Positions 7,298 through 60,800 of a DNA stretch of 64,000 bases are shown one piece after another; position 1 is the first letter of the stretch; the number at the start of each line of letters is the position of its first letter. Origin of the DNA: a candidate division CSSED10-310 bacterium. GTDB lineage: Bacteria; CSSED10-310. Below the pieces are notes generated by a model. The model was not told the DNA's origin, did not search any database, and was given only the letters and a program-made list of their open reading frames with translations. The translations under genes and the position numbers were made by a program. The stretch is taken from contig JAFGEQ010000006.1 in NCBI GenBank assembly GCA_016931515.1, forward strand, positions 24,649 to 88,648, read 5' to 3'.

Positions 7298-7300
7298 GCA

Positions 7301-8239: not shown

Positions 8240-8258
8240 TGTGTGAAAGGTGGTGGTC

Positions 8259-9706: not shown

Positions 9707-10495
9707 ATGTGGACACAAGGCACGATCAGACGAGATCAAGGATTGGAGGGCGCCTTGAATTTAAAATACTCCCATGGTTTTTCTCTGGTTGAGTTACTGG
9801 CTGTCATCGGAATTTTTCTGGTCTTATCCACAATTTCGATTATTGCGTGGGACTCGTTTGGACCCCTGATGATACTGCAAGGTGCGGCTGAAGGACTCGG
9901 GGATACTCTTGAACTGTGTATGCACAAAGCTCTGGCTCAAAAAAATGAGTTTTTTGTAATGATCAACTATAGAGAGCGCTTGTATCGAACAAATGACAAT
10001 ATCACTCTCCAGTTCCCCGCCAATTCATATGTGGCAGTCAATGATGATGGCTGGTTGCCGACCAACACGAATAAGACGCGCAGATACAATCATCACTCAC
10101 GGTTTGATGGCGATAAACCGGAGTATCGGGAGGAGTATGTTCCTGATGCTGGTGATTACGCTAACAAATGGCGAGATAATAACATGATTGAGTCTCGAGA
10201 AATCTTTAAGGGACCGTTACGGATAGGACGTGGAATATTTTTTCAGCCGCCGACGGATGTCCGTGATGCCCCTGTTAGAATCGTTTTAAGCTATCGAAAA
10301 CCATTTATGTACTGGCATGGTCAGAATGTTCCCGTCAACCGTCCTGTTTACGAAGCGGAACGCCGCGAGGATGCCGCCTATTTATATTTATCGGACCATC
10401 GGTACCGACCTGGAGATGACACTAAAGATAATAAAGCACATCTTCGGGTCATTCGCATCATAGAACAAAAGGTCGATGTATATCGACCTATCTAA
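9707..10495 (+). CDS. type IV prepilin-like protein (N-terminal cleavage/methylation motif)
   Basis: Leader then G|FSLVELLAVIGIFLVL with Glu at +5 and hydrophobic helix = class III (prepilin peptidase) signal. Confidence 0.7.
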   Translation: MWTQGTIRRDQGLEGALNLKYSHGFSLVELLAVIGIFLVLSTISIIAWDSFGPLMILQGAAEGLGDTLELCMHKALAQKNEFFVMINYRERLYRTNDNITLQFPANSYVAVNDDGWLPTNTNKTRRYNHHSRFDGDKPEYREEYVPDAGDYANKWRDNNMIESREIFKGPLRIGRGIFFQPPTDVRDAPVRIVLSYRKPFMYWHGQNVPVNRPVYEAERREDAAYLYLSDHRYRPGDDTKDNKAHLRVIRIIEQKVDVYRPI

Positions 10496-42133: not shown

Positions 42134-43486
42134 TCAGGTCGCTGAAACCGTCAAATCATCAAAAGCGATCCAAGGTACAGAATATCGTCCGAAGAGAGTG
42201 TCTTCAGAATAGACATCAGATGACATACTCCGAAAGTTATTCTTCATGATTTCAAACACATTCCCGGCGATCATCACATCTTTAACGCGCCCGATAATCT
42301 CCCCATGTTCAATTTTGTATCCCAGGGCAACGCTCATGGAGAATTCGCCGTTGAGATTGTTACCCTGACCGGCACCCATCAGATCATCAATTATGATGCC
42401 TTCCTCTATCGATTCTATGAGTTTATCTCGAGGCAAATCGCCAGGATTGATGACGAAATTGGATGGCCAGGGATTGGGTTGGGCATCGATACTGAAACCT
42501 GTATATAGCGATGATTTTTTAAATCCATTCCCTGATGATTGCTTTCCTGATTTATAGGCTGTCTGCAGGTCGTACAGAAAGCCTTTCAAAACACCCTTTT
42601 CAATAAGCGGTTTCCGATAGGCTGGAACCCCTTCGTCGTCTGCGGGGCAGGAACCGGGCAGACCGGGAATTGTTGGATCATCTGATAAACAGATTCGCGG
42701 ATCAATCACGCGTTCACCGATTTTATCGGATAGCAGGGACAGCTTACGCGCAGCGAGTTCGCCGTTCAAACCATAGAACAAAGGAACAAATAGACCCCGG
42801 AATCCAAGACTTGTAAACAACACAGTCATTTTTTTAGTTTGCATGGGAGATACATTGCCGCAGTGTTTGAATCGCCAAACCGCCATTTCCGCCATCTCCT
42901 TAGGAGCCATGGTCAGGTTTGTAAATGTCCGCGTGTCTTCCAACTCAGCTCGATCAGATGGGAGCATTAGAAGCACATTTAGAAATGACTGGTGAATGGT
43001 TTTTTCGTAACTGACACATCCCCCCCCAGAATTCATTATCGAAATCTTGTGTATTTCCCGTGATACTTCCGCTTCGATATTTACGTCGGGAAATGAGTTC
43101 TTCACCGTATCGACCATTTCCTCCCCAGTAAGAACAATATCCTTCAGAGAGAGCCCTTCGACTCTCTCATCATAAAATGCTCCCTTTCCATAATTCTTAC
43201 AGACTGATGGGAAGGTCATGTCAGTTTCCGGGCCGAATGATGCGGATTCAAGTGCGCGCTGCACCAATCCGTCAACCTCATCCGGGTGCGTGGTTGAAGA
43301 AAAACCGAGCCGTCCATTGACAATGACCCTCAGTCCGGTGGATACCGACTGTTCGCCTTCAAGAGCATTTAATTTTCCACCAAGGAAGCAAGCCGGTGAT
43401 GCATCTTTTTCGATACGATACACTTCCGCTTTTTGTGAATGTTTATTTGCAAGATCCAAAATTCGTTCCATCTTACCGGCCTCCAA
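42134..43486 (-). CDS. pmbA: TldD/PmbA-family metalloprotease subunit (PmbA-like, lacks HExxxH)
   Basis: TldD/PmbA fold with characteristic C-terminal region; paired with an adjacent HExxxH-containing paralog. Confidence 0.7.
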   Translation of the reverse strand: MEAGKMERILDLANKHSQKAEVYRIEKDASPACFLGGKLNALEGEQSVSTGLRVIVNGRLGFSSTTHPDEVDGLVQRALESASFGPETDMTFPSVCKNYGKGAFYDERVEGLSLKDIVLTGEEMVDTVKNSFPDVNIEAEVSREIHKISIMNSGGGCVSYEKTIHQSFLNVLLMLPSDRAELEDTRTFTNLTMAPKEMAEMAVWRFKHCGNVSPMQTKKMTVLFTSLGFRGLFVPLFYGLNGELAARKLSLLSDKIGERVIDPRICLSDDPTIPGLPGSCPADDEGVPAYRKPLIEKGVLKGFLYDLQTAYKSGKQSSGNGFKKSSLYTGFSIDAQPNPWPSNFVINPGDLPRDKLIESIEEGIIIDDLMGAGQGNNLNGEFSMSVALGYKIEHGEIIGRVKDVMIAGNVFEIMKNNFRSMSSDVYSEDTLFGRYSVPWIAFDDLTVSAT

Positions 43487-44852
43487 TCAATACATTTTGT
43501 ATACGGATGTGCGGGCTACCCATCGACACGCTCAGTGGATATTGCATTCTCGCACCGACACTTTTTCCACAACCTCCGGACCGTGAACGCTGGAGATCAT
43601 TTCCGACCATATCAATGTCCTTTAATGTTTCGAAAACATTGCCTGACAGGGTCAAATCACGTATCCAACCTCCCAGTTTTCCGTTTTTAATCACGCGTGC
43701 ACGTTCAGCCGAGAATGTAAACAGACCTTTTGATGTGTTACCACTGCCGCCACCCACGACATACAGTCCATCAGAAATCCCTTCGAGCATCTGCTCGAAA
43801 CTATGCGGACCCGGTGCAATAAACGTGTTCGACATTCTGCAAATGGGCGAGAATCGGTAGTTGATGGTTCTTGCATTTCCCGTAGGTTGCTCTCCCATCG
43901 CAGCGGCAGTATCACGAGTATGAAGACGCCCGGCGAGTTTTCCTTCACGAATGAGGTAAGTCATTGATGATGGTACACCTTCATCGTCATATTTAAAGGA
44001 TCCCCGTTCATCGGTCAGAGTGCCGCCATCCAGAACGCTGAAATGATCTTGCCCGAATCTTGTTCCGAGTGTCATCTGGTTGAGCAGTTTTTGATTATCG
44101 GTAACATTATCGGCTTCTGAGAGGTGACCAAACGCCTCATGAATGAATACCCCGGATAATCTCGGGTCCAAGATAACCGTATAGCGACCGCCTTCAACCG
44201 GCTTTGCCTTGACAAGATCCGAAACATCACGGCAGAGATCATCCAGTGTCATTTCCGCCTGGGCGATATCGTTCCATGATTTCCGCGTACCAAACCCGGA
44301 ATAGATCGACTGAACGACGTTCTCATGCCGTCCTATGGCACTCACTCCGCCGGCTCCCCAAAACCCGTGCATTTTGATACATGTGCCTTCGCTGTTCGCA
44401 TAAAAAATCCGTCGTTCATCTTCAACATAGTTCGCGCCTGACGAAATTACTGTTGGGCTGGATTTTAAAATTGAATTGGACATCCGACGAAACAACGCGA
44501 CTTTCTCCTCAAGGCTGACATTCCGGGGGTCATCCTTGGGATCGATGGTCAGTTCAACCGAATCTTCCACCGGGTTGACCGGTGCCAATCTAACGGATCC
44601 TTTTCCTGCAGCGACAGCTCGCTCTTCCGCTGCTCGGACAAATTCCCTGAGTTTGTCTGGATTATTAAAACTGACGAATCCCCAGGAACCATTGATTAAC
44701 GCCCGAACATAGCCACCATAGTCTCTTGTTGATTGCGCTTTTTTCAAATCCTTACCGGAAAAACTGACTCCGGCTTTTGCTGTATCTTCCAGGCGAATTT
44801 CCACAAAATCCGCTCTGGATTCGGCCACTGCCTGCTTCAAAATAGATTTCAT
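43473..44852 (-). CDS. tldD: TldD/PmbA-family metalloprotease subunit (TldD-like, HExxxH present)
   Basis: HEAFGHLSEAD metal-binding motif, Gly-rich C-terminus typical of TldD. Confidence 0.75.
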   Translation of the reverse strand: MKSILKQAVAESRADFVEIRLEDTAKAGVSFSGKDLKKAQSTRDYGGYVRALINGSWGFVSFNNPDKLREFVRAAEERAVAAGKGSVRLAPVNPVEDSVELTIDPKDDPRNVSLEEKVALFRRMSNSILKSSPTVISSGANYVEDERRIFYANSEGTCIKMHGFWGAGGVSAIGRHENVVQSIYSGFGTRKSWNDIAQAEMTLDDLCRDVSDLVKAKPVEGGRYTVILDPRLSGVFIHEAFGHLSEADNVTDNQKLLNQMTLGTRFGQDHFSVLDGGTLTDERGSFKYDDEGVPSSMTYLIREGKLAGRLHTRDTAAAMGEQPTGNARTINYRFSPICRMSNTFIAPGPHSFEQMLEGISDGLYVVGGGSGNTSKGLFTFSAERARVIKNGKLGGWIRDLTLSGNVFETLKDIDMVGNDLQRSRSGGCGKSVGARMQYPLSVSMGSPHIRIQNVLIGGR

Positions 44853-44927
44853 CTGTTCATTCTCCCTTCACTCCGCTTCAGCCGTCCGTATTCACAACCC
44901 CAAGACATTCTCAGCCTATTATCGTAA

Positions 44928-45692
44928 TCATAATTCAGGTTTTTTATCAAACATCATGATGGTCATCGAATCAGCAGTTGTTCCGGAACCAGTGCTATCC
45001 CCGGTTTCCACCATTGTCAACCAGTCAGGCAAACCCAAAGCCCAACCAAATTCTGCAACTGCACCCGAAATATTCACATGCGGTTCACTCAGTATTTTCC
45101 TGATTCGCGCGGTTGTTGATAAACCGGTAATTTTGTGAAGCAAGCGAGGTAATTCCTGATTCAGTACAGGCCGTGGAAGATCGAGTTGTCCCCCGGAGAT
45201 TCTGGATCGATAGTGCTGCTCGATGCGCGGATCCGAACTGACCGTCCGAGTTGAACGGTCACGGATACGGGATTCAAGCAATTCCAGGCCGCGGACACCC
45301 AGTTGTTTCAGTTTTGCCTGTTCGAATGTATCAAGCTGCGTCGATGATCCGGATGCGTATTCAGAAGAAATTTCCCATTGATAGGAACCGATGTAATCGT
45401 TGCCGTTAAATGCGGTAAATCTCCATGCTGATTGGGTATCAACGGATAAAGCCAGCACGAACGACTGAAGCCGGTGAGCAATATCGGACGCCATATCCAC
45501 AGTCTTCTCCGGTATATTGATCAGACTGATCCAGCGCTCGGAATTCATGATGATTCGGATATCCCATACGAGTGTATCTAAATGTGATGTCCACCGACTG
45601 ACTGGCGCCAATCCCCTGCAGGCAGCCATATCGATCAATGCTTCCTGAACCTGTTTCTTCTGTCGATCCAGAATATGAACGCTTTCCAGCAT
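44928..45692 (-). CDS. hypothetical protein (254 aa)
   Basis: ORF divergent from the first GT-C-like membrane protein; no motif recognised. Confidence 0.35.
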   Translation of the reverse strand: MLESVHILDRQKKQVQEALIDMAACRGLAPVSRWTSHLDTLVWDIRIIMNSERWISLINIPEKTVDMASDIAHRLQSFVLALSVDTQSAWRFTAFNGNDYIGSYQWEISSEYASGSSTQLDTFEQAKLKQLGVRGLELLESRIRDRSTRTVSSDPRIEQHYRSRISGGQLDLPRPVLNQELPRLLHKITGLSTTARIRKILSEPHVNISGAVAEFGWALGLPDWLTMVETGDSTGSGTTADSMTIMMFDKKPEL

Positions 45693-45756
45693 GAGTCACC
45701 TCCTGTGCGATTCTTTCCACTTGAGCGCCGGGACAGTCTGCCTGTAGAATAGAATC

Positions 45757-47988
45757 ATGTCTCGTCTGAACTCCGGGCTCATTTCACTTGTTACTATTAT
45801 GCTGTTCGCAGCTGCCTTTTCAAAGGGATTGATCTGTGTTTTTACAAATCCGCCCTGGCAGGCTGCCGATGAGCCCATGCATCTTGAAGCCGCACTGATT
45901 ACAGGGGCGAGTTTCCCGACGTCATTTCCCCCTGACGAGACAACGGATCCGAGTTTTCAGGCACCCATTCTGCAGGTAATGAGCAACCATCGTTTTTTTC
46001 AGCGAATCGGGATACCTGAACCCATGCCTCTGCCAAAATTTTTCCGGGAAACCGTTTTTATAAGGGATGCGCCATCCAAACTCGGCCGCCAGCCTCTATT
46101 CTACCTCATCACAGGGTTGCCGGTTCATTGGATGACTTCAGGTATACTTGAAGCGCTCTATCTGTGCAGAATTATCAATCTCCTGGTGACACTTCTAGGA
46201 GCATTCTGCCTCTACATCATCTTGGGTCGACTCTACCCCGCAGCACCTCTTATCAGATTAATGGGATTGTTTTTCCTGATCACTCAACCCCTGTTCTGGC
46301 AGATGGGTTCTTCCATGACACCGGACGCGTGGAAGTTCCTGCTGATGTCGATTGGTTTTCTGTGTGTCATCGCCAGGCCGACGTCCGGATCCCGGCTGTT
46401 ATATAATCTGATTTGCATATCCTGGTTCATGGCAGTTGCTGCAACCAGTTGGACGTTGGTCCCACTGGCAGTTGTCATCTCAACTGGATTTCTACCCAAA
46501 GATTCCAACCGGTCGATTTCATCCAATCTGAAAAGGCGTATCGTCCCGCTTGCTTTTCTTGTCGCAGCCGTTCTGATTGCGTTCCTCATCTCCGATCGAA
46601 CTCTGATCTATCACGAGATGAAGCATATCGTGACAGCATTTCAAGGGCTTCCCGCAAAATCTTCAAACATCAAAACCATCGTTCAAACACTGTTTCAAAC
46701 ATACTGGACAGGATTCGGATGGTTATCCATTCCCACTAACCTCTCAACACTCCTGTTATTCAGTCTCGTCTCATCCATTGGATTCGCCGGATTGATCCGT
46801 TATTTTTGCGGCGTACGATTCAAGGGTGACTCCGATCCAATCAGGCGTATTGTAATTGTATTTTGTGTGTTGGGAGCCGGAATGGTAATTTTCCGCGCAT
46901 TATCAGATGAACCTTCCATCCAGGGCCGCTACTTTTTCCCGATACTTCCGGGCATCCTGATTGCCGGTACCAGGGGATTGTTTCTGATCCGCTCCCCTAT
47001 GATCCGCCGTGTATTCCTTTTTATTGCGGTCCTCTGCGGATTCCTTGGAGATATTGCCGCAAATACGTCCGGATGGATGCTGTTTCAACATTACGGGTAC
47101 CAGGCGATCAGTGATCCCGTCCAGGCAATGGCTCATCTGAGATGGGTCGATTCATACCCGACACGTCATGTTCTTGATTCCAGGGATCCCCAATCATCAG
47201 CATTTTTCTATAAGGGCTGGTATCCGCCGGAACCCGGAAACACTCATCGGTGGATGATGAAAGAATCGGAAACTCTCTTACCATTTGTTTCTACTCAGAA
47301 CGCTCTGATGCGAATGGAGATCAACCCATTCCTGAGTTCAGAGCAGTCTGAGATGTCTATTCAGGTTTCATTGAATGGACAGATTTTAGAAAGCAAAGAG
47401 ATTCAACCAGGATGGCGGACTTACACATTTTTTGTCAGTCAGAACGAATGGGTGGGAGGTTTGAACCGATTAGGAATATCAGCACACAACGTTGGAAGTC
47501 CATCCGATTCCGGGGAGAATTCGGACAGGCGATTCCTGTCAATCGCATTACGGAGAATTGATATTATTCCGTTGATTTACACAGGGGGCATTGATGAGAT
47601 TTTTTCCGGGTGGTTCTTTACTCCGGATATGCAAGCCCGATTGCATTTAAATGCCGGTGATCGGATAGAGGTTCTATCCGACGAAACCGGTGATTTCTTT
47701 TTTTCAACATCCGTTGACGGTCAACGATATTGGACAGAGTTAACTCCCGGAGAACAGTTCGAGTTCGATACAGCGTTCAGAATCTCCCGGATCGAGTTCG
47801 ATCAGGCCAGACCGAATCAAGCGGTCGAAATTTTTCGTTCGTTTCAGCAATCGATTGGAATGCTGCCGGAGGGGTTAAGCGACGTGTACTTTCATCTTTA
47901 TTTATTTGCTGTCTGGCTGCTCATATACAGCATATCCGTCGTTTTTTTATTAGTAGCTTATGCATATTCCAGACGCTTGACCCTTTGA
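45757..47988 (+). CDS. GT-C-fold polytopic membrane protein (PMT/ArnT-like putative glycosyltransferase) with C-terminal soluble domain
   Basis: Multiple TM helices in first ~430 aa, DEP motif in first predicted loop (AADEPMHLEAA) analogous to the DE motif of ArnT/PMT enzymes; family assignment tentative. Confidence 0.5.
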   Translation: MSRLNSGLISLVTIMLFAAAFSKGLICVFTNPPWQAADEPMHLEAALITGASFPTSFPPDETTDPSFQAPILQVMSNHRFFQRIGIPEPMPLPKFFRETVFIRDAPSKLGRQPLFYLITGLPVHWMTSGILEALYLCRIINLLVTLLGAFCLYIILGRLYPAAPLIRLMGLFFLITQPLFWQMGSSMTPDAWKFLLMSIGFLCVIARPTSGSRLLYNLICISWFMAVAATSWTLVPLAVVISTGFLPKDSNRSISSNLKRRIVPLAFLVAAVLIAFLISDRTLIYHEMKHIVTAFQGLPAKSSNIKTIVQTLFQTYWTGFGWLSIPTNLSTLLLFSLVSSIGFAGLIRYFCGVRFKGDSDPIRRIVIVFCVLGAGMVIFRALSDEPSIQGRYFFPILPGILIAGTRGLFLIRSPMIRRVFLFIAVLCGFLGDIAANTSGWMLFQHYGYQAISDPVQAMAHLRWVDSYPTRHVLDSRDPQSSAFFYKGWYPPEPGNTHRWMMKESETLLPFVSTQNALMRMEINPFLSSEQSEMSIQVSLNGQILESKEIQPGWRTYTFFVSQNEWVGGLNRLGISAHNVGSPSDSGENSDRRFLSIALRRIDIIPLIYTGGIDEIFSGWFFTPDMQARLHLNAGDRIEVLSDETGDFFFSTSVDGQRYWTELTPGEQFEFDTAFRISRIEFDQARPNQAVEIFRSFQQSIGMLPEGLSDVYFHLYLFAVWLLIYSISVVFLLVAYAYSRRLTL

Positions 47989-48089
47989 GTGTTGAATGCT
48001 AGTGTTGGCTGCCTGAGTTTAGTGGGCTTAATTCAGACGAATTTGCCTGATGTGCAAGTATACCGGGTTGATAGGTAAGGAGAGGTAAA

Positions 48090-50396
48090 GTGAGAAATTT
48101 ATCTTTTGTCCTGCTTGCAGTGATGATTGCACTGCTGATTGGCTGCTCAGAGGGTGAGCGGGGACCCAAAGAATTCGATGTTCAGATTACTACCCAAAAA
48201 CTCGAAGACGGTCAGATATCTTTCAGTGCTGAAGTCGATGAAACAGTGAAGGGTGCATTAACCTATCAGTGGGATTTTGGAGATGCTACCACTTCTCCTT
48301 TAATTTCTCCGGTTCATCAATACACTGAATCAGGTCTTTTCCCGGTTACGGTTTCCGTAGTGGACTCCGAAGGCAACTTCGGTTCGGATCATCTCTTCTG
48401 TCGCAATGGTTTGACGATCGTTATCTGGATTCCCTGGGTTGCTATCATTGGATTATTGCTTGCACTTGTTTTTTATGTATGGATCAGGAAGCTTCCGGTC
48501 GGAACCGAGAAGATGAGGGAACTTTCCGAGCATATCCATCGTGGTTCGATGGTGTTCCTTAAACGAGAAAGCAGCTACCTGTACCGGTTTATCATAATCG
48601 TGTTTATTCTCCTTCTTTTTATTGGTTATCGCACGGCATTAGCGTTTTTGGGCGGCGCGATCTGTTCGATGCTGGCTGGATTGATCGGGATGATCGCTGC
48701 TACCCGCGCGAATGTTCGTACGGCTGAAGCGGCGCGTTCAGAGGGTTTATCACGAGCCCTTTTCGTGGCTTTCCTAGGCGGGGAAGTCATGGGCCTTTCG
48801 GTCGCGTCCCTGGGATTGCTTGGAGTGAGTCTGATCTTCCTGGTATTCGGCGATCCCAATCATTTCCAATACATCAGCGGATTCGCCATGGGAGCGAGTT
48901 CGATTGCTCTATTTGCCAGGGTTGGCGGAGGAATCTACACAAAGACAGCGGATGTAGGGGCAGATCTGGTTGGTAAGATCGAAGCAGGCATTCCGGAAGA
49001 TGATCCACGGAATCCGGGAGTTATCGCGGATAATGTCGGCGATAATGTCGGCGATGTTGCCGGAATGGGTGCAGATATTTTTGAGTCATACGTTGGATCT
49101 ATTGTTGCGACAGTAGCTCTGGGTGCAACAATGATCGCCAATGCCTATCAATATATGTTGTATCCGCTCGTGGTTGCCATGTTGGGTCTAATCGCTTCAA
49201 TCATTGGATTCGCTTCGATGAGGTTGTTCACTCATAAAGGTCCGGCGGCAGTGTTACGACTCTCGACCTATGTAGCCGCAGGTATCATGATAGTGACGTC
49301 TTTTTTCGCAGCCGTTTTCATGCTGGGGACAGGAAATGGTTTTCTGATCTGGCTGGCAATGGTTTTTGGATGTCTTTGCGGTGTTCTGATCGGTTTGATT
49401 ACTGAGTATTACACGTCGGGGAAACCCATCCGCACGATCGCCAAAAACTCCGAAACCGGTGCAGCAACAAATATTATCACCGGTCTGGCGGTAGGAATGG
49501 AATCCGTTGTTTTACCAGTTCTCACAATATGCATTGCAATTCTCATCGCATATTGGCTTGGTGGTCTGTATGGGATAGGAATCGCTGCAGTCGGGATGCT
49601 CGCGACCACCGGTATTACAATGAGTGTCGATGCATATGGACCCATTGCGGATAATGCCGGGGGAATTTCAGAGATGGCAGGTCTTGGACCCGATGTACGC
49701 AAGATTACCGACAGTCTGGATTCCCTGGGAAACACGACTGCTGCAATCGGCAAAGGGTTTGCGATCGGCAGCGCCGCTCTTACTGCTCTGGCTATGTTTT
49801 CAGCTTATACGCAGGCAGTTGTGATCAATATCAGTGATTTCAGCATCAACATCATGGACCCGATCGTTGTAACAGGTCTTTTTATAGGCGGCATGTTGCC
49901 TTTCTTCCTTGCCTCGAAAACAATGACCTCGGTGGGACGGGCAGCGAACAAAATGATTTCGGAGATCAGACGACAATTCAAAGAAATCCCTGGACTGATG
50001 GAAGGCACTTCGGAGCCCGATTTTGAACGTTGCATTGATATTTCGACCCAGAGTGCACTCCACGAAATGGTAATCCCGGGAGTAACGGCAGTACTCGCGC
50101 CTGTTTTGATCGGATGGATACTCGGTCCGGAGGCACTTGGTGGGGCGTTGGCGGGGGCAACGATAACAGGAGTGCTTCTGGCTCTGATGATGGCCAATGG
50201 CGGCGGTGCCTGGGATAATGCCAAGAAGTGGATAGAGGAAGGCAATCTGGGCGGAAAAGGTTCCGAAGCTCATAAAGCGGCAATAGTCGGTGACACGGTT
50301 GGAGATCCGTTCAAAGACACATCGGGGCCTGCCATGAATATCCTGATCAAATTAATGAGTGTCGTTTCGCTGGTCATCGCTCCGCTATTCGGTTAA
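48090..50396 (+). CDS. hppA: membrane-bound proton/sodium-translocating pyrophosphatase with N-terminal lipoprotein signal and PKD domain
   Basis: [22 protein letters not shown] and other H+-PPase signatures; GTG start with AAGGAGAGG RBS; residues ~1-20 signal with lipobox LIGC; residues ~25-110 PKD-like ([11 protein letters not shown]...[21 protein letters not shown]). Confidence 0.85.
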
Positions 50397-50442
50397 CGGG
50401 TGCCAAGACGCCAGGTTCCAGGATGATCGGATCAGCAGACGC

Positions 50443-51564
50443 ATGACACACACAATCTTCTACATTACACCTTCCGTGGAGTTGCTTGGAGCTCGCATCA
50501 GTCTGGTAGAATTGCTGCGTCACCTGGATCGAACACGGTATCGTCCGGTGGTTATTTGTCATCGATATGGTCCATTGATTGATAAGTTGAAGGAGATAAA
50601 CGTTGAGACTCGGATCGTTCGGTTTGGTAATTGGCGAAAACCAAAATACTGGCCGCTGATCCCTTTCGCGATAAGAGAACTAGTGGCACTTGGCAAAATT
50701 GAAAAAGCAGCGCTTTTTCACAGCAATGAATTCTGGTCGTTTCCTTACGCACGTTTAGCAGCCAATCGCCTGGGTATTCCCGCTTTTTCACATTTCCGCT
50801 GCAGCCGGACACCTCAACAGATTCCTCCCAGAAAAATCAAAAATTATTTGCTGCCCAAAGCGGATATGTTGATCGCTGTTTCCAGGGCTCAGCAGCGACT
50901 ATTTCGGGATTTTCCTGAGATGGCGGATCGAATTACAGTCATTCATAACGGAGTGGATCTTGAGCAGTTCGAACGAGCTGACGGAATTGGTTTCAGGCGT
51001 GAAATCGGAATGAATTCCGATGGACATCTGTTTGGTATCGTCGGTCCGGTCAGTCCTCATAAAGGCATTGAAGAGTTTATCCGTTCAGCAAAGATCATTT
51101 GCGACGCACTTCCCAACGCACATTTTGCGGTGGTCGGTCCTGAACGTCCACATGCATTTGCCGATACAATGCAAACTCTCGCCCAATCATTAAATATCGA
51201 AAAGAACGTGGTTTTCACTGGTTTTCGGATGGATATCCCGCAAATCATGTCGGCGTTTGATGTGCTGATCACACCATCCAGAGTAGAAGCGTTCGGACGG
51301 GTTATCCTCGAAGCGATGTCTGCAGGTACTCCAGTAGTGGCATCGCAGGTTGGAGGAATTCCAGAGATAATCGATCGACCTGAAATTGGCGTTTTAGTAC
51401 CACCGGAATCCCCTGAGAAACTGGCCGCAGCGGTATTGAGTCTAATTGCCGATCCGGAGAAAAAAAAGCGTATGATTGAGATCGCACGCGAACATGTCCG
51501 GAAGAATTTCACGATTGCCAGGCACACACGACAAGTGGAGCAAATTTACGAAAAATTTTTATAA
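50443..51564 (+). CDS. glycosyltransferase, GT4 family (group 1)
   Basis: GT-B C-terminal domain motifs, EAMSAGTPVVASQVGGIPEII; ATG 50443 chosen. Confidence 0.8.
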   Translation: MTHTIFYITPSVELLGARISLVELLRHLDRTRYRPVVICHRYGPLIDKLKEINVETRIVRFGNWRKPKYWPLIPFAIRELVALGKIEKAALFHSNEFWSFPYARLAANRLGIPAFSHFRCSRTPQQIPPRKIKNYLLPKADMLIAVSRAQQRLFRDFPEMADRITVIHNGVDLEQFERADGIGFRREIGMNSDGHLFGIVGPVSPHKGIEEFIRSAKIICDALPNAHFAVVGPERPHAFADTMQTLAQSLNIEKNVVFTGFRMDIPQIMSAFDVLITPSRVEAFGRVILEAMSAGTPVVASQVGGIPEIIDRPEIGVLVPPESPEKLAAAVLSLIADPEKKKRMIEIAREHVRKNFTIARHTRQVEQIYEKFL

Positions 51565-51651
51565 AAAACCTAGCTGAGAGTCGTTTTTACTCAGGAATGA
51601 TTGATTTTGCCTCCTTGATCGCATTACCTTATTAATTTGGCGAGGATGATT

Positions 51652-53808
51652 ATGTCCCAGATAGATGCGATAATTGAGGGCTACAAGGCATATTCGAACA
51701 ATCCGGAAGCCGAGGAAAGAATCCGGTTGGCTTATCAGATTGCCCGTGACGCGCATGCCGGTCAATTTCGTAAATCCGGTGAACCATACATTGTTCATCC
51801 GCTTGCAGTTGCACAAATACTGGTTGAGCTGAAAATGGATTCCGCATGTATTTGTGCTGCACTTCTCCATGATACGATTGAAGACACGGATATAGAACTG
51901 GAAACGATCCGGCAACAACTGGGACGAGAAATCGCTGTAATGGTCGATGCACTGACAAAGATCAAGACAAATGCCCTGGCTGAAAAAATTCACAAGGAGC
52001 AGGAACGTGCCGACACGATGCGGAAAATTGTTCTCGGAATGGCAAAAAACGTTCGTGTGATTATCGTCAAACTGGCGGATCGATGGAACAATGTACGAAC
52101 ACTTCAATTTATGAGCCTGGAAAAGCGGAAGCAGATTGCGCGGGAAACGATGGCCATCTATGCACCGATTGCTGATAGACTGGGGCTGTCCATTATTCGG
52201 CGGGACCTTGAGGATCAATCATTCAGTCATCTTGATCCGAAAAACTACCAGACCTACCAGCGGCGACTGGCGACGAGTAAAAGTTTTCTGGAGAACGACA
52301 TTAATGATCTGAAGCTTCAGGCAGAGGAAATTCTGGCTCGCCATGGTTTGAAGGTACGTATTTATGAGCGGTTCAAAACGGCCTTTTCACTGTATCAACG
52401 AGCCCTGCAAAAACTCCCTGCCCACATGCTTCATCTCGCGGTAATTACGACCTCCGATCTATCCTGCTATCAAGCACTGGGCATTCTGCACGAGAACTAC
52501 CGTCCGTTACCCGGAACAACAATAAAGGATTACATCGCAATTCCGCGGACGAACGGATATCAGGCTTTGCACACCTATGTTCTTTTCCGTGAGAATGTTT
52601 ACCCTATACAAATCCGGTCTGAAAAAATGGAGCAGGTAGCGATGTATGGGATTCTGCAGAGCGGAAATGAGAGCAGTCGTTCCCGATATCGCACCTGGAT
52701 AAAGCGTCTCAAAGAGCTGGTCCAGGATGAGGCGGATGCCAGGGATCTGATGAAGGGAATCGAAGATCTTGCAGCGCAGGATAAAATCTATGTTTGTACG
52801 CCACAGGGAGATTACCTGGGGTTCCCCCGTGATGCTGTTGTGTTGGATTTTGCATATCGAATTCACACGGACATTGGACACCGCTGTCAAGGTGCATTGA
52901 TGGATGAAAGACCCGCTGGAATTTTCGATAAGCTTGTTGATGGAGCCATGGTGGAAATTATTCATTCCGATGAGTATCAGATTCGCCCTGATTGGCTGGA
53001 TAATGTCAGGACACCCAGAAGTCGAACGGCCATAAGGAACTGGATCGAAACACGCAAACGAATCCGCAGTCGGGAATTCGGTGAACGATTACTGAATCTG
53101 GAGTTGGAGCGTCAGAAAATCGATTTGAGGAATCTGATCATGCAGGCGCGATTCGCCAGCATTCTGCAAGATATGAATGTTGCCGACACTGACGAGTTGT
53201 TTTTCAAAGTTGGAAGAGGAATTATTACAATAAAGACCGCCATGAAAAGCCTTCTCGATGAAGAGGAATACCGAAAATATACATCGCGAGGAACATCCCA
53301 GGTTTCGCGACTCTTCAGTTACTTTCTCAGTCGACCTAAAGTTGATGATGTTTTTGAGATAACGGATATCCACGATCCTTATCTGAAGTTTTCTCAATGC
53401 TGTAATCCATTGCACGGCGAAGAGATTGTCGGAATTTTATCCATTCAACACGGTCTCTCCGTTCACAGGATGGATTGTCCGCAATTAAAAACGCATCAAC
53501 GTGAAGATCTTCAATTGATTAAACTGGTCTGGAATACCGAAGACACTCGTCAGTCTCCTATTACTTTCAGACTGGTATGCAATAAAAAGGACGGGGTGCC
53601 ATCAACTATCTTTAACACACTGGAATCACATGAGGTTATTATACGCCACTTTCAACTCTGGCCGGAAGAAACTCAGATACTGATTCTCGTCGAGGTTATG
53701 TCCAACAGTGCGCAATACTCGGAACGAATTCAATCCATTCTTCAATCCATCAAAGGTGTTGAAAAAGTCATTCGTACCCAGTCTTTCGTGAAAGGCAAAC
53801 GGCCATGA
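51652..53808 (+). CDS. rel: bifunctional (p)ppGpp synthetase/hydrolase, RelA/SpoT family
   Basis: HD domain (HPLAVAQIL...LHDTIEDT), synthetase domain, TGS and ACT regions; ATG 51652 chosen (GAGG 6 nt upstream). Confidence 0.85.
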   Translation: MSQIDAIIEGYKAYSNNPEAEERIRLAYQIARDAHAGQFRKSGEPYIVHPLAVAQILVELKMDSACICAALLHDTIEDTDIELETIRQQLGREIAVMVDALTKIKTNALAEKIHKEQERADTMRKIVLGMAKNVRVIIVKLADRWNNVRTLQFMSLEKRKQIARETMAIYAPIADRLGLSIIRRDLEDQSFSHLDPKNYQTYQRRLATSKSFLENDINDLKLQAEEILARHGLKVRIYERFKTAFSLYQRALQKLPAHMLHLAVITTSDLSCYQALGILHENYRPLPGTTIKDYIAIPRTNGYQALHTYVLFRENVYPIQIRSEKMEQVAMYGILQSGNESSRSRYRTWIKRLKELVQDEADARDLMKGIEDLAAQDKIYVCTPQGDYLGFPRDAVVLDFAYRIHTDIGHRCQGALMDERPAGIFDKLVDGAMVEIIHSDEYQIRPDWLDNVRTPRSRTAIRNWIETRKRIRSREFGERLLNLELERQKIDLRNLIMQARFASILQDMNVADTDELFFKVGRGIITIKTAMKSLLDEEEYRKYTSRGTSQVSRLFSYFLSRPKVDDVFEITDIHDPYLKFSQCCNPLHGEEIVGILSIQHGLSVHRMDCPQLKTHQREDLQLIKLVWNTEDTRQSPITFRLVCNKKDGVPSTIFNTLESHEVIIRHFQLWPEETQILILVEVMSNSAQYSERIQSILQSIKGVEKVIRTQSFVKGKRP

Positions 53809-54653
53809 TAGATTCTCTCGGTCCAGAGCAACTCTCCTCTCTCTGCTCTGCGGCGCAACCGATTGTCCGAGAGGCCGGTAATCTAGTAACCGATTATTTC
53901 AACTCCCCTTTGGCCATTGAATATAAAAGTCGATTCGACATGGTCACCGAAGCGGACAAGGCATCCGAACGCTTCATTATCAATGCTCTTAATCAGTTAA
54001 CTCCTGGAATACCGATCATTGCGGAAGAATCTTCAGGAGAATTGGATGGAAGCGTTTTCCCGAATTCCTGGGTATGGGTCCTGGATCCCCTGGATGGAAC
54101 CACTAATTTTGCCCATGGTTTTCCTCATTTCGCTATTTCACTGGCCCTCCTCCATTCCGGTCATCCCCGGCTGGGTCTGGTGTATGATCCGTTGAAAGAA
54201 GAAATGTTTACGTCCGTTATGAACCAGGGATGCTTTCTGAATAATGTTATAGTGGCAGTGTCAGGCACCCGATCGCTCGAACGGAGTCTTATCGCGACCG
54301 GTTTCCCATATCGCGTGCGAGAGCTGAAACAAAACAATCTGATGGAATTTTGTGCTTTTCGTCTGGAATGCCAGGGGATAAGACGATTTGGTGCAGCGGC
54401 ATTGGATCTGGCCTATGTCGCAGCAGGCAGGCTGGACGGTTTCTGGGAACGATGGTTAAAACCATGGGATACTGCTGCAGGTATTCTGATGGTCGATGAA
54501 GCGGGTGGTTGTGTGAGTCGTTTTGACGGATCCGAATATTCTGTCCTTGATCCCGATATTGTCGCCTCCAATAACCTAATACACGCGATGATGCGGAATG
54601 TTCTGAACCAACCACTACCTGATTTGCCCCAATTTCCCCGGCTCGCAACATGA
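53805..54653 (+). CDS. inositol monophosphatase family protein (SuhB/CysQ-like)
   Basis: WVLDPLDGTTNFAHGFP and EESSGE motifs; ATGA overlap with rel. Confidence 0.8.
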   Translation: MIDSLGPEQLSSLCSAAQPIVREAGNLVTDYFNSPLAIEYKSRFDMVTEADKASERFIINALNQLTPGIPIIAEESSGELDGSVFPNSWVWVLDPLDGTTNFAHGFPHFAISLALLHSGHPRLGLVYDPLKEEMFTSVMNQGCFLNNVIVAVSGTRSLERSLIATGFPYRVRELKQNNLMEFCAFRLECQGIRRFGAAALDLAYVAAGRLDGFWERWLKPWDTAAGILMVDEAGGCVSRFDGSEYSVLDPDIVASNNLIHAMMRNVLNQPLPDLPQFPRLAT

Positions 54654-57600
54654 CGGCACACCGACACATATGTATGCGCATGATTCATCTTTCAGGTAAA
54701 CTTCTGAATCTGCTCGTTTTTCGAACCGTCCTGAGCCTTCCTTTTTTCTCCGGACATCTCTCGCCCCAATTCGCTTCGCTGTATTTGTATCTAATTCCGA
54801 TTGTCCTGGCTCTTCAGAGTCTTCTAGTGACTGCAATCCCTTCAACGAAAGCCCGGAAATATTGGTATGCGGACTCATTAACGATTATTGGAGTTGAACT
54901 GAGTACGCTCCTGATATTGGGATTCGCAGCCCGTAATTATCTGCTTCCGATGACCGGTTTGTTAATTGTTGTTATGACCTTTTTCCGTTCGCTGATACTT
55001 ATCGGATACATCGCGATGCTTCCCCACCAATCCGTTTCAGTTTTGCGGCGATCCGTATATCTGTCACTCGCGATTTGCCTTTTACTATCACCGCTGTCCT
55101 CCTGGAGAGAGATCAACCGCCCTCTTATGGGCGATGAACCATACTACCTGCTGATCGCATACAGTATCCTCCACGATCATGATATTGATCTGGTTAATAA
55201 TTACCGAAACGGAGATTCTTTAACATTTACGGATCAGCGATTGGAACCTCAGACTTTTGATAATTGGCGAAACGGCCGACTGATGTCACGACATCCGCCA
55301 ATGCTCCCAGTTTTTTTACTGCCTTCCTTCATTGTATTCGGTGTTCGAGGTGCCCTATTCTCACTAATACTTTTCACGGCATTATTGGCAGCAGGTTTGT
55401 ACAGATTGCTGACGCAATTCGATATATCTGACGATTTATCAGTGTGGATTTCTGCAATGACCGTTCTAACCGCACCCATGATCTTTTACTCCCAGGTTCT
55501 TTTCACCGAACTTCCAGCTGCCACGCTGGCTGTTATCACAGTATCCTGTGTATTGGATCTTAATCAGCGCAAGCGCTATCCCATTCTGCTTGCGTTAATC
55601 TGTACACTTGCAGCAACAGCGCTGAAAACGCGTTTTGCTTTGCTTTGCTTTGCACCACTGATTGTCAGCCTTGTTCTGAATATCAAATTGCGCCGCAGAC
55701 GATGGGGTTGGTTCGCCCTGGTTGGCCTATTACTGGTACTAATCGCCATCATTAATTCGACTTATTACGGATCACCACTTGGTCGTTATGTTCTATCTGA
55801 ATTAACTCGGCTTACGAATTGGAGGCTTTTCCGCGGTTTGCTTGGGACTCTTTTCGATCAACAATATGGATTGCTCCCGATAAATCCCATATTCGTTTTT
55901 GCGATTCCGGGAATGTTTTTTCTTTATAAATCAACCGGTTTGCCCAGGTTCCTGATATGGATTTCCGCCTGGTTGCCCACTTTTTTATTAATCGCTCTTT
56001 ATGCGGAGTTAACAGGAGGCATCTGTCCGAAAGGACGATTTCTCGTGGCGTGGGTGCCCTTTCTCGCAGTCCCCATCGCTTTTAGTCTATTTAATTTAAG
56101 AGGGTTTTTCTGGCGGAGTATAATCAGTGCCTCTCTTATCGCAACCTTACTGAACGTGTTCATCCAGCAGATTGATCCGAAATTACAGATTGTCTATCCT
56201 GGATCCTCTGACGGATTCCTTTCACGCATAAGTGGAATCCTCGGGATGGATTTAATCGGATGTATCCCGTCGTTTGACCGGGTTGAAGAGGGTTTGCTGC
56301 GGAGTGGACTCATCGCGTTTTTTGCAATCATGTGTCTCACGGTATTGGCGATCAGATACGGAGTCCGACCGTGTGCATCTTCTGAGCATTCATTACGGCA
56401 AAGAGGTTCCTTATCGTTTATCGTATTGGTGTTCCTGTCGATTTGTTCTTTGAGTGCTCTATGTCTGTTCCCTTTACAATCTCCATGGATGCATCCGGAG
56501 GATCCGGTATTCTCCACAACTGGCTCAGCCAGAGTTTTCTGGGAAGAACCTCGAAATTGGGATGATTGGAGTATTCGAACCGCATCACCGTACAGAAGCG
56601 GCATCCGGCTGCACCAAAACGACTCGCTGTTACGTGCGATCCGGCTCCGGTACCCGATCAGTGCATTGGATTCAGCGGCTGCGCTTGAGATTATTGCCAG
56701 AGGGAGTTATCCCGGACCGGAGATGCCGATTTTGGAAGTGGGTGTGGGTGATCATATACTGGGACACGTGACAGTGAAATCCAACGAATTCGAATCCTAC
56801 GTGGTCCCCTGGCCATATGGAGCATTGGATATACTTCCTCCCCTACGGTTAAAACATAGTGATTCAAGTGCAGGTGGCACTTATATTGATATCGATAAAA
56901 TCCGTCTTAGAAAATGGGAGGAGCCTTGGCCGATTATGCCCCCTAAACGGGATGATCCTTTTCCAATCTCATTTGGATCACTGACTGTACAGACAATAGA
57001 CCTTTCACCTGAGCCGGTACAACAAGGATATCCGTTTTCGATCAGCGCAAAGGTTGTTTTTGAAAATGAGACCCCACAACCGGATTTGGGTCTCCTGTTC
57101 ATCAGCGACACACGAGCTTATATCACTCCTCTTCAAAATCTTCGGTCAGAGGAACAGGTCGATTACACAATCACGATTCCTCCTCAATTTGGCAGCGGTA
57201 TATTTGAAGTGCTGGCTCAGGCCAGAGATCCCGATTCCGGTCAGTTCATTGCACCGGAAGGAACTCATTTTTTCAGGTGTGGGAAAAGAGCGTGGCTAGG
57301 CCGTATTATAGTTGATCCGGGACCTGTAGTTTCACAGGACAACTGGATCGAACGAATATCCGCAAAAACAGCGATTCCAGCCAATCATATTATACAGATT
57401 GACCGGAGTTGGCATCTATCGCGAAATTCCGATGTTGCGATTAAACTGGATCAGGAGATATCGGCCAATGGTCTGGTTCTGATCAGTAACATCTCATCTG
57501 TCTTTGAAGAGATACCATGGGACACATTCATCGGAATCATCGAGTTAGATAGCACTGAAAGCAACGTGGAATATCAGATTCAATTGGGAAAAGAGACAGC

Positions 57601-57844
57601 GGAAGCCATGTATGAATTTGGTGGCAAAGAAGTGCGTCTGGCTCATCCTCAGGCTCCGATTATTGAACGACAACCCAAGATCATTCACTGGCCGGTCGAG
57701 TTTGAGGGCATATCCTATAACGAAGTGATCTATTACTCCCGACTGGATTGGGGCAGGGATCTGCCAATTCGTGAAATCAGAGTCCGATCCCTAGATTTTC
57801 CTGGTGTCTGGAATACGTATGCTTTAGCATTGGTTCTACCATGA
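54650..57844 (+). CDS. giant GT-C-fold membrane protein (PMT/ArnT-like) with ~500-aa C-terminal extracytoplasmic domain
   Basis: ~12 TM helices; loop motif GDEPYYLLIAYSILHDHDIDLVNNY approx 55130-55200; ATGA overlap with upstream IMPase gene. Confidence 0.5.
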   Translation: MTAHRHICMRMIHLSGKLLNLLVFRTVLSLPFFSGHLSPQFASLYLYLIPIVLALQSLLVTAIPSTKARKYWYADSLTIIGVELSTLLILGFAARNYLLPMTGLLIVVMTFFRSLILIGYIAMLPHQSVSVLRRSVYLSLAICLLLSPLSSWREINRPLMGDEPYYLLIAYSILHDHDIDLVNNYRNGDSLTFTDQRLEPQTFDNWRNGRLMSRHPPMLPVFLLPSFIVFGVRGALFSLILFTALLAAGLYRLLTQFDISDDLSVWISAMTVLTAPMIFYSQVLFTELPAATLAVITVSCVLDLNQRKRYPILLALICTLAATALKTRFALLCFAPLIVSLVLNIKLRRRRWGWFALVGLLLVLIAIINSTYYGSPLGRYVLSELTRLTNWRLFRGLLGTLFDQQYGLLPINPIFVFAIPGMFFLYKSTGLPRFLIWISAWLPTFLLIALYAELTGGICPKGRFLVAWVPFLAVPIAFSLFNLRGFFWRSIISASLIATLLNVFIQQIDPKLQIVYPGSSDGFLSRISGILGMDLIGCIPSFDRVEEGLLRSGLIAFFAIMCLTVLAIRYGVRPCASSEHSLRQRGSLSFIVLVFLSICSLSALCLFPLQSPWMHPEDPVFSTTGSARVFWEEPRNWDDWSIRTASPYRSGIRLHQNDSLLRAIRLRYPISALDSAAALEIIARGSYPGPEMPILEVGVGDHILGHVTVKSNEFESYVVPWPYGALDILPPLRLKHSDSSAGGTYIDIDKIRLRKWEEPWPIMPPKRDDPFPISFGSLTVQTIDLSPEPVQQGYPFSISAKVVFENETPQPDLGLLFISDTRAYITPLQNLRSEEQVDYTITIPPQFGSGIFEVLAQARDPDSGQFIAPEGTHFFRCGKRAWLGRIIVDPGPVVSQDNWIERISAKTAIPANHIIQIDRSWHLSRNSDVAIKLDQEISANGLVLISNISSVFEEIPWDTFIGIIELDSTESNVEYQIQLGKETAEAMYEFGGKEVRLAHPQAPIIERQPKIIHWPVEFEGISYNEVIYYSRLDWGRDLPIREIRVRSLDFPGVWNTYALALVLP

Positions 57845-60800
57845 CGGTCGATTCAAACTGCAGATTTTTAAGACTTCTTGCAGCATCAATAGCGCATGTT
57901 ATTGCTGCAATTGTTCTGTTTTTGACTCTGAAAGTTATTAATCTATCACAGATTACTTCTACGTCTTTATGGGCTCACATGCTGACATGGCGCTACCCTC
58001 TACTCCTGGCAACATCTTCCATTCTGATTCTTTTCGTGAGTCGAAACTTAACCCGGGACCGACGGAATCTTATCATCAGGTTTGATACGGGTGTTTATGC
58101 ATTGACGCCAGTGGTTGTGATTCTGCATTCTATGGCTCCCTATAGCGGCGATCCGCAACTACTTTTCGGAAGTCTTTATGGGGGAGTTTTCATCTTAAAG
58201 TCCGTATTGATCGGTATCACGCTGCTGATTTCACAGCGCAAACGCCCCGTCACAGCCTCAATGTTATTCCTGATCATGTTATGGTTCTTCGGATTTGTCG
58301 GACTCTGGTATGGTCCCGTCCATCACATTCATGGCGATGAACCTCATTACCTACTGATGACTCACAGTATTGTTCATGATGGTGATCTTAATCTGATCAA
58401 CCAGTATCAGGAAAAAACGTATCTTACCTATCGATTGGATGAACTTCAGCCCAAAATATCAGATATCAAGGAACCAACGAAAATTTACTCAAGAGGACTT
58501 GGTGCTACCTTTCCGATGCTTCTGGCACCGGCATATGCATTGGGAGGCCTGCCCGGCACCCAGTTCTTCATAATTCTCTGCTCTACATTGCTTATCGTAC
58601 AGCTTTATCTGTTGTTGATGAGATGTGTACCGGATTCGCAACTCGCCCTGCTATCTGTTTTACTCATTGCAACAAGCAATCCTGTCTTGACTTACTCTTC
58701 CCTGATCTACCCGGATATTCCGGCCGCCTTATGCATCGTCATCGCTCTAAGAGTTCTGCAGACCCACCCGTTATCACAGGCCGGCAGATCGGTTCCGACT
58801 TGGATTTTTCTTCTTTCGGCAGCCTTGTTATTCCTTAAATTCAGGTATTTTATTCCTGTCATCCTTCTAATGATTCCAGTTCTAAATCGCGAATGCCGAA
58901 AAATGCGAAATGGTATCTCTCTCCTGATTGCACTTCTGTTGCTTGCGGGAACATATGTTATCGGAGATAGATGGTTCTTGGACGGCGACCTTTTTTCCAA
59001 CCGATTCGGCGGCATTGCTCAAATAAAAAATTATCTGCCGGGGATGCAGAGTCTGAAGGTTCTGCCGGGGTTACTGCTTGATCAAGAGAGTGGATTTATG
59101 TTCCACGCGCCGCTGTATTTTTTAATAATAGCCGGTATATCGCTATACAGGGGTCCGCGAAACAGCCTTTACTGGTTCAGTGTTCTTGGAATTCCGATGA
59201 CTGCAATTTCCCTGTTCGGTCACTTCGCTTGGCACTGCCTGCCAACTCCTCCCTTGCGGTATATGCTTCCCGTTCTTCCACCCACGGCTTTCCTTCTGGC
59301 GTCAGCATTGAAGAACTGGAAAAATCGCAGTTTTGTTTTCCGCACACTGTCCGCTGCATGCATTGTTTCATCATGGCTGACAGCCGGTATCCATTTCATA
59401 ATGCCGGATTGGCAGAATAATCTCGCCGATGGATCAGCCCGGTTTCTTGAAGCGCTGGCCACTGCCATCCGAATACCAGTTCCTCTTTTTTTCCCGTCCG
59501 CCATCCGACCCGGAACAGCATTATGGGTCTGGTTGATACTGATGATACCCTGCCTGATTATTCTGACCGCTCCTTTTGCACGGGATGCCCGGAAGAGTCC
59601 AGGTTATTTTCAGCCGTCGGTTATGATCACGATTCTTCTGGGAGTAGCAGTCATTTATTGCGGCACGATGAGTCATGCGGTTGTCAGGACGTACCATCCT
59701 GAAGACAGATGGTGGAATCAGCCCGATGGCGGCACTTATTTTCCGGAGAACCGTGATCCGTTCTTCCACCAGGAAATCTCTTACGGATGGCAACTCCGCT
59801 CCGGTGAATCATTGAGAATTCCACTTCGAATCAAGGATACCAGAGCGACAGGGATTATTCGATGTCGACTCATTGATTCGTGGAGACCTCATCAGTTAAC
59901 GATTAAACTGTCGGATCAATCGACCGAAAGAATCAATGTTACTTCGAAACACTGGACAGAATACGCTTTTAAGATTCCTCCGGACGCGCATTTGAATACC
60001 ATCGATATTGCTTCAATCGGGAAGGGCGAACATGCTGTTGCCATTGATTCGGTCACAATCGTCAAGCGGTCGGACGCGCTCTTCTCCCTATGGAACAATT
60101 TAGCTGCACTCAGCCGCAGGGCTAAATGTCATCGATTCACCATGGCTTGTGACTACAGATCGATGCTGGTCGCTGATGGGGACCCCTGGTACGAAGTGGC
60201 ATCACGATTCCGACCCGGGGCTAGGCCGAGGGTATCTCGCGCAGCGGAAGCGGATCCATTGCCACCGGGTTTTTTGAATCAGATCTTTCAGGATGCGGTG
60301 AATGCCGGTTGGGACTCTGCATCTCATATTGAAAAGCTGTTCCAATTCTCTTTTTGCAGCGAGCTTCAAGGAGAGTCACTTCGCGACTACGCAATAAACG
60401 GTTTACTGACGGCACATCAACCGGCTGTTTTTCTATTAATCACACTGGCTGAAAAATACCCTGACGATGAAACAATTCAGTTTTATCTACCGATCGCGTA
60501 TTACTTGCGGGGAAACACCTACAAAGCGGTAGACATGCTGGATACTTTGTTAATTACGGGAAAATATTATCCGATGCAACTGACAAAACCCGCCTCTCAT
60601 CTAGAAGTATCGAATCCATTGTATTCCCTCTTTAGCGATCTGGAAAACGATCCTGAATATATAGAGATCGCTCGGATGGTAAATAACCGTCATTTGGCTA
60701 AAAGTATTCAGTGCTATCATAATGGGGCTATTCGAGAAGCAGCGCTTTACTTTGACGACTACTATCTTTCGGATTTTGGTATTTTCATGGAAAGTGTTCC

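Follow-up and report, generated by a model that had tools for sequence, protein, structure and literature searches.

A PKD domain fused in frame to the N-terminus of a probably lipid-anchored membrane pyrophosphatase in candidate division CSSED10-310

The gene described here lies in a stretch of 64,000 nucleotides (hereafter named the window) of contig JAFGEQ010000006.1 from a candidate division CSSED10-310 bacterium, where an open reading frame (ORF) at positions 48090–50396 of the + strand encodes a protein of 768 amino acids. From its GTG start codon this ORF contains three parts in a single frame, a lipoprotein-type signal sequence, a PKD domain and a membrane pyrophosphatase, with no stop codon between the PKD domain and the pump. 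An initial annotation, made from the sequence of the window, had called attention to this PKD-pyrophosphatase ORF, and its observation was confirmed, since all the elements are present at the positions it gave and match well beyond chance. We consider it highly likely that they form one polypeptide: a membrane-integral pyrophosphatase that depends on K+, probably pumps Na+, and acquired an exported module at its N-terminus.

The succession of a PKD block and a pyrophosphatase N-terminus was evidenced by Pfam profile searches, in which all three families involved scored above their cut-offs. PKD_4 (PF18911) was found at residues 36–97 with 42.3 bits (cut-off 27), rising to 47.1 bits (E 2.6e-12) when the N-terminus was scanned alone, and PKD (PF00801) at residues 43–96 with 27.3 bits (cut-off 23.5). 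Residues 38–99 matched the PKD domains of the collagenases ColH and ColG in a PDB sequence search, with E values from 9e-9 to 1e-4. The AlphaFold2 (AF2) model of the protein contains five long strands in this region (residues 31–37, 43–49, 58–62, 82–91 and 97–106), predicted with a local distance difference test score (pLDDT) of 77–85. When the predicted N-terminal domain was compared with solved structures using Foldseek, target-normalised TM-scores (TMt) of 0.72–0.81 were obtained with the PKD domains of PrtV and ColG/ColH, and the probability was 1.00 for the PKD domain against 4l9d, 4aqo and 4jrw. The signature WxFGDG...PxHxY...GxYxVxL...D..G is kept across 20 orthologues, residues W61, F63, G64, D65, D92 and N96 being invariant in the 20-sequence N-terminal alignment and P74 and H76 nearly so. 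Conservation among the relatives extends from the lipobox Cys through Gly-Pro, WxFGD, PxHxY, GxYxV, DxxGNxGS and, lastly, a YxRxG linker that leads directly to helix 1; the Ig-like beta-sandwich ectodomain together with this short linker (residues ~27–107) is encoded at 48168–48410 (+). A search with residues 1–135 retrieved 42,314 hits, the best 150 of which were giant multi-PKD proteins ranked by their summed repeat scores. Swamped by these proteins, this search was uninformative as a source of independent PKD-pyrophosphatase fusions and speaks for PKD homology only.

The rest of the protein (residues 110–768, 48417–50393, +) corresponds to a membrane pyrophosphatase core with 16 transmembrane helices, helix 1 spanning residues 110–134, and ends at the stop codon at 50394–50396 (+). 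The Pfam profile H_PPase (PF03030) aligned over its whole length (1–645 of 645) with residues 119–763, giving 889.9 bits (cut-off 29.7, E 1.6e-267), and the cytoplasmic Asp-rich catalytic motifs are all present, in columns that are invariant in a 26-sequence alignment. The full AF2 model has a mean pLDDT of 85 and a predicted TM-score (pTM) of 0.83; its first transmembrane helix starts at residue 110, and the helix bundle typical of the family comes after it. When this core was compared by Foldseek with the structures of the pyrophosphatases TmPPase and VrPPase, TMt values of 0.83–0.89 were obtained, and in the PDB sequence search residue 7 of TmPPase aligned to residue 111 of the query. According to the model, helices 1–5 precede the catalytic DVGADLVGK...EDDPRNP loop (residues 299–310), which is placed between helices 5 and 6. 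Since this loop is cytoplasmic in the family, the odd-numbered helices run from outside to inside and the segment preceding helix 1 is extracytoplasmic. A cluster of Arg and Lys residues after helix 1 agrees with that orientation. Thus, the topology derived from the model and the alignment places the PKD domain in the periplasm, the location that the initial annotation had thought plausible. Coupling of pyrophosphate hydrolysis to cation transport is predicted from family membership.

A relevant question is whether the fusion could be an artefact of annotation or assembly, so that the pump would start internally, at the TTG at 48411 or a similar codon, and the 107 upstream codons would be either read-through that is not translated or a small lipoprotein gene of its own, linked to the pump through a sequencing error. 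Apparent examples are found among the relatives. The Prokaryotic Genome Annotation Pipeline (PGAP) starts two deposited proteins, P0020 (680 aa) and P0021 (668 aa), at internal ATG codons, and both calls lack the signal peptide and the PKD domain. These proteins belong to loci L002 (JAFGJC010000267, 2481–4898) and L003 (JAFGLW010000013, 4629–7007) of NCBI metagenome-assembled genomes (MAGs). In both cases, however, the frame is open upstream, giving ORFs of 805 and 792 aa with LLGCS or LGGCS followed by the PKD domain. The third example is the relative nearest to the window gene, P0010 at locus L001 (ENA ERZ25039527, contig_100492; 92% identity in the core), in which the gene caller reported two ORFs of 87 and 634 aa, with the PKD domain out of frame with the pump. 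The PKD domain is present there, but one −1 and one +1 insertion or deletion (indel) occur in the region coding for the PKD domain and helix 1 (5599–6020), and they cancel each other. The adjoining DUF2142 gene is also broken, into three pieces, and for this reason the indels are probably assembly errors and not the mark of a pseudogene.

After correction of the two mis-called starts and of the indel-bearing contig, the fusion is encoded in 22 out of the 22 closest relatives (66–92% identity), the comparison of N-termini that the initial annotation had proposed as a check. Nineteen of them, the closest full-length homologues in a collection of 5.8 billion proteins (66–84% identity, 757–776 aa), all contain PF03030 together with PF00801/PF18911, and among the Illumina-type assemblies examined no orthologue showed a stop or a separate gene between the PKD domain and the pump. 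No exact copy of the window protein is on record, P0010 being the nearest at 92% identity. In seven independent assemblies the PKD frame is kept without stops despite saturated synonymous sites. This saturation allows no reliable omega to be calculated from dN/dS, and only the proportions of non-synonymous (pN) and synonymous (pS) differences were compared. In the PKD region pN (0.37–0.50) was lower than pS (0.62–0.90) in each of the 21 pairs formed by the seven genomes. This indicates that there is a single conserved frame, and that the PKD part of it is under selection.

The translation start was analysed in the same manner. The GTG at 48090–48092 (+) follows a Shine-Dalgarno sequence, AAGGAGAGG (48077–48085, +), that ends four bases before it. 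All eight orthologous loci start with GTG, and all eight carry an AGGAGA core 5–9 nt before this codon, so the GTG start and strong ribosome-binding site that had been claimed were substantiated. The alternative start at the internal TTG (Leu108, 48411–48413, +), which had been left open, was rejected: no purine-rich ribosome-binding site precedes it, the codon is CTG in the closest orthologue, and it encodes Phe or Tyr in 14 out of the 22 relatives that cover the site. Furthermore, a start past helix 1 would invert the topology of the pump. Taken with the open upstream frames, the cancelling indels and the pN values, these data leave the artefact only a very slight chance.

The distribution of the fusion was studied by tblastn of the full protein against 185,579 species, each represented by a single genome. 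Five loci (L004–L008) matched from residue 1–5 to the end, with more than 140 open codons ahead of the PxGT loop; three of them belong to MAGs named as candidate division CSSED10-310 and the other two to bacterial MAGs, L008 lying on the same contig as L003. The three CSSED10-310 MAGs come from Zodletone Spring and from a soda-lake sediment. The fusion was not found in the 75 other pyrophosphatase loci that were fetched, from Latescibacterota, Gemmatimonadota, Aminicenantes, Planctomycetota and other groups, of which 73 were judged by an automated open-frame check and two (L082 and L083) by tblastn coverage only, their matches beginning at query residues 108 and 114. In those 73 loci the open frame around the pump measures 644–754 codons, with no space for an N-terminal domain of that size. 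The first cytoplasmic-loop motif could be located in 42 of the 73, in most of them 28–34 residues past the first possible start, and was not locatable in the other 31. All the carriers with a phylum name are thus CSSED10-310, and, among the pyrophosphatases examined, the fusion is a clean marker of this lineage (CSSED10-310 MAGs and close relatives). The phylum has been described as rare and as sister to Acidobacteriota, with a predicted Gram-negative envelope and a predicted anaerobic, heterotrophic lifestyle (PMC8248873).

Two loci that resembled distant fusions, L018 and L060, with apparent matches starting at residues 18 and 46, respectively, were discarded, because both matches consisted of joined tblastn pieces. 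A peptidyl-tRNA hydrolase gene lies upstream of the pump in L018. In L060 (Deltaproteobacteria MAG JAUXGL010000051, 2510–10008) two membrane pyrophosphatase genes are arranged tail to tail (5734–7785, +, and 7789–10008, −). The pump matched there has a normal size of 683 aa, and a separate gene of 782 aa, whose product has a PKD domain and a membrane anchor at its end, is located ~870 nt upstream of this pump. This pairing without fusion may be a coincidence.

The N-terminus ahead of the PKD domain has the characteristics of a lipoprotein signal peptide. Residues 1–18 (48090–48143, +) comprise a single basic residue, Arg2, in the n-region and an uncharged hydrophobic core of 13–14 residues, with L-I-G ahead of Cys19, whose TGC codon (48144–48146, +) would specify the lipid-modified first residue of the mature protein after cleavage by signal peptidase II. 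The lipobox LIGC reported in the initial annotation therefore stands: the window protein fits a lipoprotein pattern like PROSITE PS51257, as do 18 of 20 relatives, and the two that fail are N-terminally truncated gene calls; the Cys19 column is invariant in the 20-sequence N-terminal alignment. Accordance with this pattern leads us to predict a lipoprotein-type signal peptide with cleavage before, and lipidation of, Cys19.

A different explanation of the same N-terminus is that the fusion is real but the first segment is neither cleaved nor lipidated. It would then remain in the membrane as a helix 0 with its N-terminus inside, giving a 17-helix protein in which the PKD domain forms a periplasmic loop between helices 0 and 1. 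Membrane pyrophosphatases with 15–17 helices are on record (PMC6882861, PMC10897367), and the AF2 model makes residues 4–17 helical, albeit with low pLDDT. The PKD domain is periplasmic in this arrangement as well, so the comparative data fit both. Several features of the segment speak against it. Its hydrophobic core of just ~13–14 residues has the usual length for a signal peptide but would make a short transmembrane segment if it were to span the membrane stably, and the invariant Cys comes right after this core. Positions −3 to −1 are compatible with a lipobox in all 20 sequences, and position +2 is Ser or Gly in 19 and Arg in one. An uncleaved anchor would have no need of a lipobox pattern, and we give the helix 0 arrangement little probability.

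In order to assign the transported ion, the positions that define specificity in the family were examined by residue-by-residue alignment to TmPPase. Within the GNTT(A/K)A motif, Ala at position 12.46 is the mark of the K+-dependent subfamily and Lys that of the K+-independent one (PMC6882861). The window protein has Ala551 at this position (codon 49740–49742, +), aligned to TmPPase Ala495 and with identical flanking residues, and by this signature it is a K+-dependent membrane pyrophosphatase. The gate of helix 6 also resembles that of TmPPase. Position 6.50 is Asp329 and 6.54 is Ser333, as in TmPPase, and the semi-conserved gate glutamate is Glu332 (codon 49083–49085, +), at the Na+-type position 6.53 by alignment to TmPPase D243/E246. 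Position 6.57, which is Glu in plant-type H+-PPases, is Gly336; the meaning of the gate glutamate at 6.53 or 6.57 has been discussed elsewhere (PMC6882861, PMC9408878). Position 16.50 is Lys754, again as in TmPPase. These residues point to Na+ as the probable ion, but two observations weigh against it: position 16.46 is Asn750, whereas TmPPase has Asp, and the K+-dependent H+-PPase of Carboxydothermus hydrogenoformans also has Glu at 6.53 (PMC6882861, Table 1).

Regarding the NCBIfam models, NF001961 (sodium-translocating pyrophosphatase) gave 1023.5 bits (cut-off 926) and NF001960 gave 944.1 bits (cut-off 546), but the V-type H(+)-translocating model TIGR01104 was also passed with 819.8 bits (cut-off 651.9). 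Because of this, and because all the PRK00733 sub-models share the sodium-translocating name, that name discriminates poorly. The term H+-PPase used in the initial annotation is hence correct as the name of the Pfam family, but as a statement of specificity it is probably imprecise, given the K+-dependent signature, the Na+-type gate Glu and the NCBIfam sodium model.

With these elements the following model is proposed. Translation would initiate at the GTG at 48090, and the 18-residue signal peptide would carry the N-terminus through Sec. An extracytoplasmic N-terminal domain of ~90 residues requires a signal peptide of this sort. The ~80-residue PKD beta-sandwich would then fold in the periplasm, and Lgt and signal peptidase II would acylate Cys19 and cut before it. 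Helix 1, running from outside to inside, would begin some ten residues past the last PKD strand. Both ends of the mature PKD domain would in this way be fixed to the outer surface of the cytoplasmic membrane, one through the N-terminal lipid and the other through helix 1. It would sit beside the periplasmic mouth of a canonical 16-helix pump that hydrolyses cytoplasmic pyrophosphate and exports cations. A polytopic lipoprotein of this kind is the best-supported model, with cleavage and acylation predicted from the lipobox. Proteins with the same general design exist, such as Escherichia coli CyoA (subunit II of cytochrome bo3), and, in Bacillus subtilis, QoxA and the YidC homologues SpoIIIJ and YqjG. 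In all of them a cleavable lipobox signal exports the N-terminus, the protein is anchored by its own helices, and the mature Cys is lipidated in addition. They belong to unrelated families and, to our knowledge, none of them is a pyrophosphatase or contains a PKD domain that separates the lipidated Cys from the first helix.

What the PKD domain does has to be considered separately from its presence. By analogy with the PKD domains of secreted hydrolases, we favour a non-catalytic function, either as a periplasmic module for contact with proteins or glycans or as a stabilising module. Four points speak for a mere passenger. Non-synonymous change is 3–4 times faster in the PKD domain than in the pump core (pN ~0.45 vs ~0.15, the core ranging between 0.10 and 0.19). 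The PKD domain of L002 carries an insertion of ~40 residues (RTVYSEEELRKEGVLQPDENLKNLSQIDLFSRLDANRLLNTEE) between WxFGD and PxHxY (L002, ~2690–2830). The conserved PKD residues are the generic signature of the family and give no hint of a particular ligand, and the fusion is confined to one small lineage. The constraint on the domain is modest, as judged from its faster evolution and the tolerated insertion. The PKD domain might then be a tolerated passenger, a lineage accident arising, for example, from the capture of an upstream lipoprotein gene once its stop codon had been lost, and would contribute nothing to the activity, localisation or stability of the pump. On the other hand, all the sampled members of the lineage keep it in frame and preserve its fold signature, even where overall identity falls to 66% and that of the N-terminal part to ~33–39%, and pN is consistently below pS. 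If an exported domain placed before an essential N-out helix were useless, one would expect at least some genomes to show it decayed or lost. For this reason we regard the passenger as unlikely, although it is the alternative to which we concede most.

A more ambitious proposal, to which we give a small chance, is that the PKD domain is a functional periplasmic adaptor absent from other membrane pyrophosphatases, or a bridge over the ion exit between two subunits. The partner of such an adaptor could be the glycan machinery of the invariably adjacent DUF2142 and GT4 genes, or a component of the outer membrane or the peptidoglycan. As adaptor or bridge, the domain might make the activity or the localisation of the pump responsive to the state of the envelope. 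If the adaptor proved true, no earlier case of an accessory or regulatory domain would be known among these 'simplest' primary pumps.

The nearest characterised system is TmPPase of Thermotoga maritima (K+-dependent and Na+-pumping; PDB 4AV3, 5LZQ and 6QXA), with which the 16-helix core is shared. Residues 111–767 of the query align to residues 16–729 of the 4av3 chain (E 2.7e-168), and the AF2 core fits 6qxa with a TMt of 0.88 and a root-mean-square deviation of 1.9 Å. The catalytic Asp-rich motifs, D6.50, E6.53, S6.54, Ala at 12.46 and Lys at 16.50 are common to both proteins. TmPPase, in contrast, begins at helix 1, whereas the window protein adds 110 N-terminal residues comprising the signal peptide, the lipobox Cys, the PKD domain and the linker; the other difference is the residue at 16.46 mentioned above. 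The PKD part has its counterparts in ColG and ColH of Clostridium histolyticum (PDB 4AQO, 2Y72, 4JRW and 4U6T) and in PKD1 of PrtV from Vibrio cholerae (4L9D), which belong to the same Pfam families and have the same predicted fold. There the PKD domains belong to soluble secreted enzymes and act as spacers or contact the substrate, while the window protein is a polytopic ion pump with a single PKD domain on its extracytoplasmic N-terminus and a lipobox ahead of that domain. Extra sequence before helix 1 is also tolerated by the 17-helix membrane pyrophosphatases, but according to reviews their additions are extra membrane helices and not a folded extracytoplasmic domain.

Membrane pyrophosphatases are described as proteins with 15–17 helices and 650–980 residues (PMC9408878, PMC6882861) and are termed 'single-domain' (PMC6882861, PMC10897367). 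The initial annotation had suspected that such a fusion was undescribed, and our searches of the literature for membrane pyrophosphatase or H_PPase in combination with PKD yielded no paper; reviews of membrane pyrophosphatases describe none either, and no fusion of the membrane enzyme is mentioned in a review of the microbial pyrophosphatases from 2024. The architecture itself is already present in databases. Two public full-length copies, MBN1295896.1 and MCD4652630.1 (both 768 aa), are named 'sodium-translocating pyrophosphatase' in NCBI nr, and their precomputed Pfam hits already list both domains. What had gone unremarked in the papers found is therefore a real membrane pyrophosphatase of two domains, probably anchored by a lipid. 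As an enzyme its core is ordinary. The interest of the protein lies in being an exception to the single-domain view, which indicates that the N-out terminus can carry cargo. Work on membrane pyrophosphatases treats them as the simplest of the primary ion pumps, and one may ask what an enzyme that faces the cytoplasm gains from an Ig-like module in the periplasm. The fusion could also serve as a natural handle in structural studies or for surface display. In addition, start calling guided by family models appears to have hidden the N-terminal part in two deposited CSSED10-310 genomes, and similar fusions may be under-counted in other groups.

The gene order around the fused gene is identical in the window (42134–57844) and in seven loci (L001–L007), among which the identity of the neighbourhood proteins falls to 29%. 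It consists of two TldD/PmbA genes, a 254-aa ORF, the DUF2142 membrane protein gene, the PKD-pyrophosphatase gene, a GT4 glycosyltransferase gene, RelA/SpoT, an inositol monophosphatase gene and a large ORF. This shared order makes it almost certain that the window derives from CSSED10-310. As listed, the GT4 ORF (50359–51564, +) overlaps the stop codon of the pyrophosphatase gene. Its orthologues align only from residues 25–29, with the exception of L001, whose tblastn match already begins at residue 2, and its true start is probably the ATG near 50443. This start would leave a short intergenic gap, suggesting co-transcription with the pyrophosphatase gene. A scan for promoters and terminators around the gene gave signals at or below the shuffle expectation, and Rfam and tRNA scans of the 64-kb window gave no matches. 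Two adjacent, overlapping ORFs of the + strand, 54650–57844 (1064 aa) and 57841–61167 (1108 aa), had no Pfam match at E<=0.001. The 1064-aa ORF is kept at the equivalent downstream position in five orthologous loci, with 38–45% identity.

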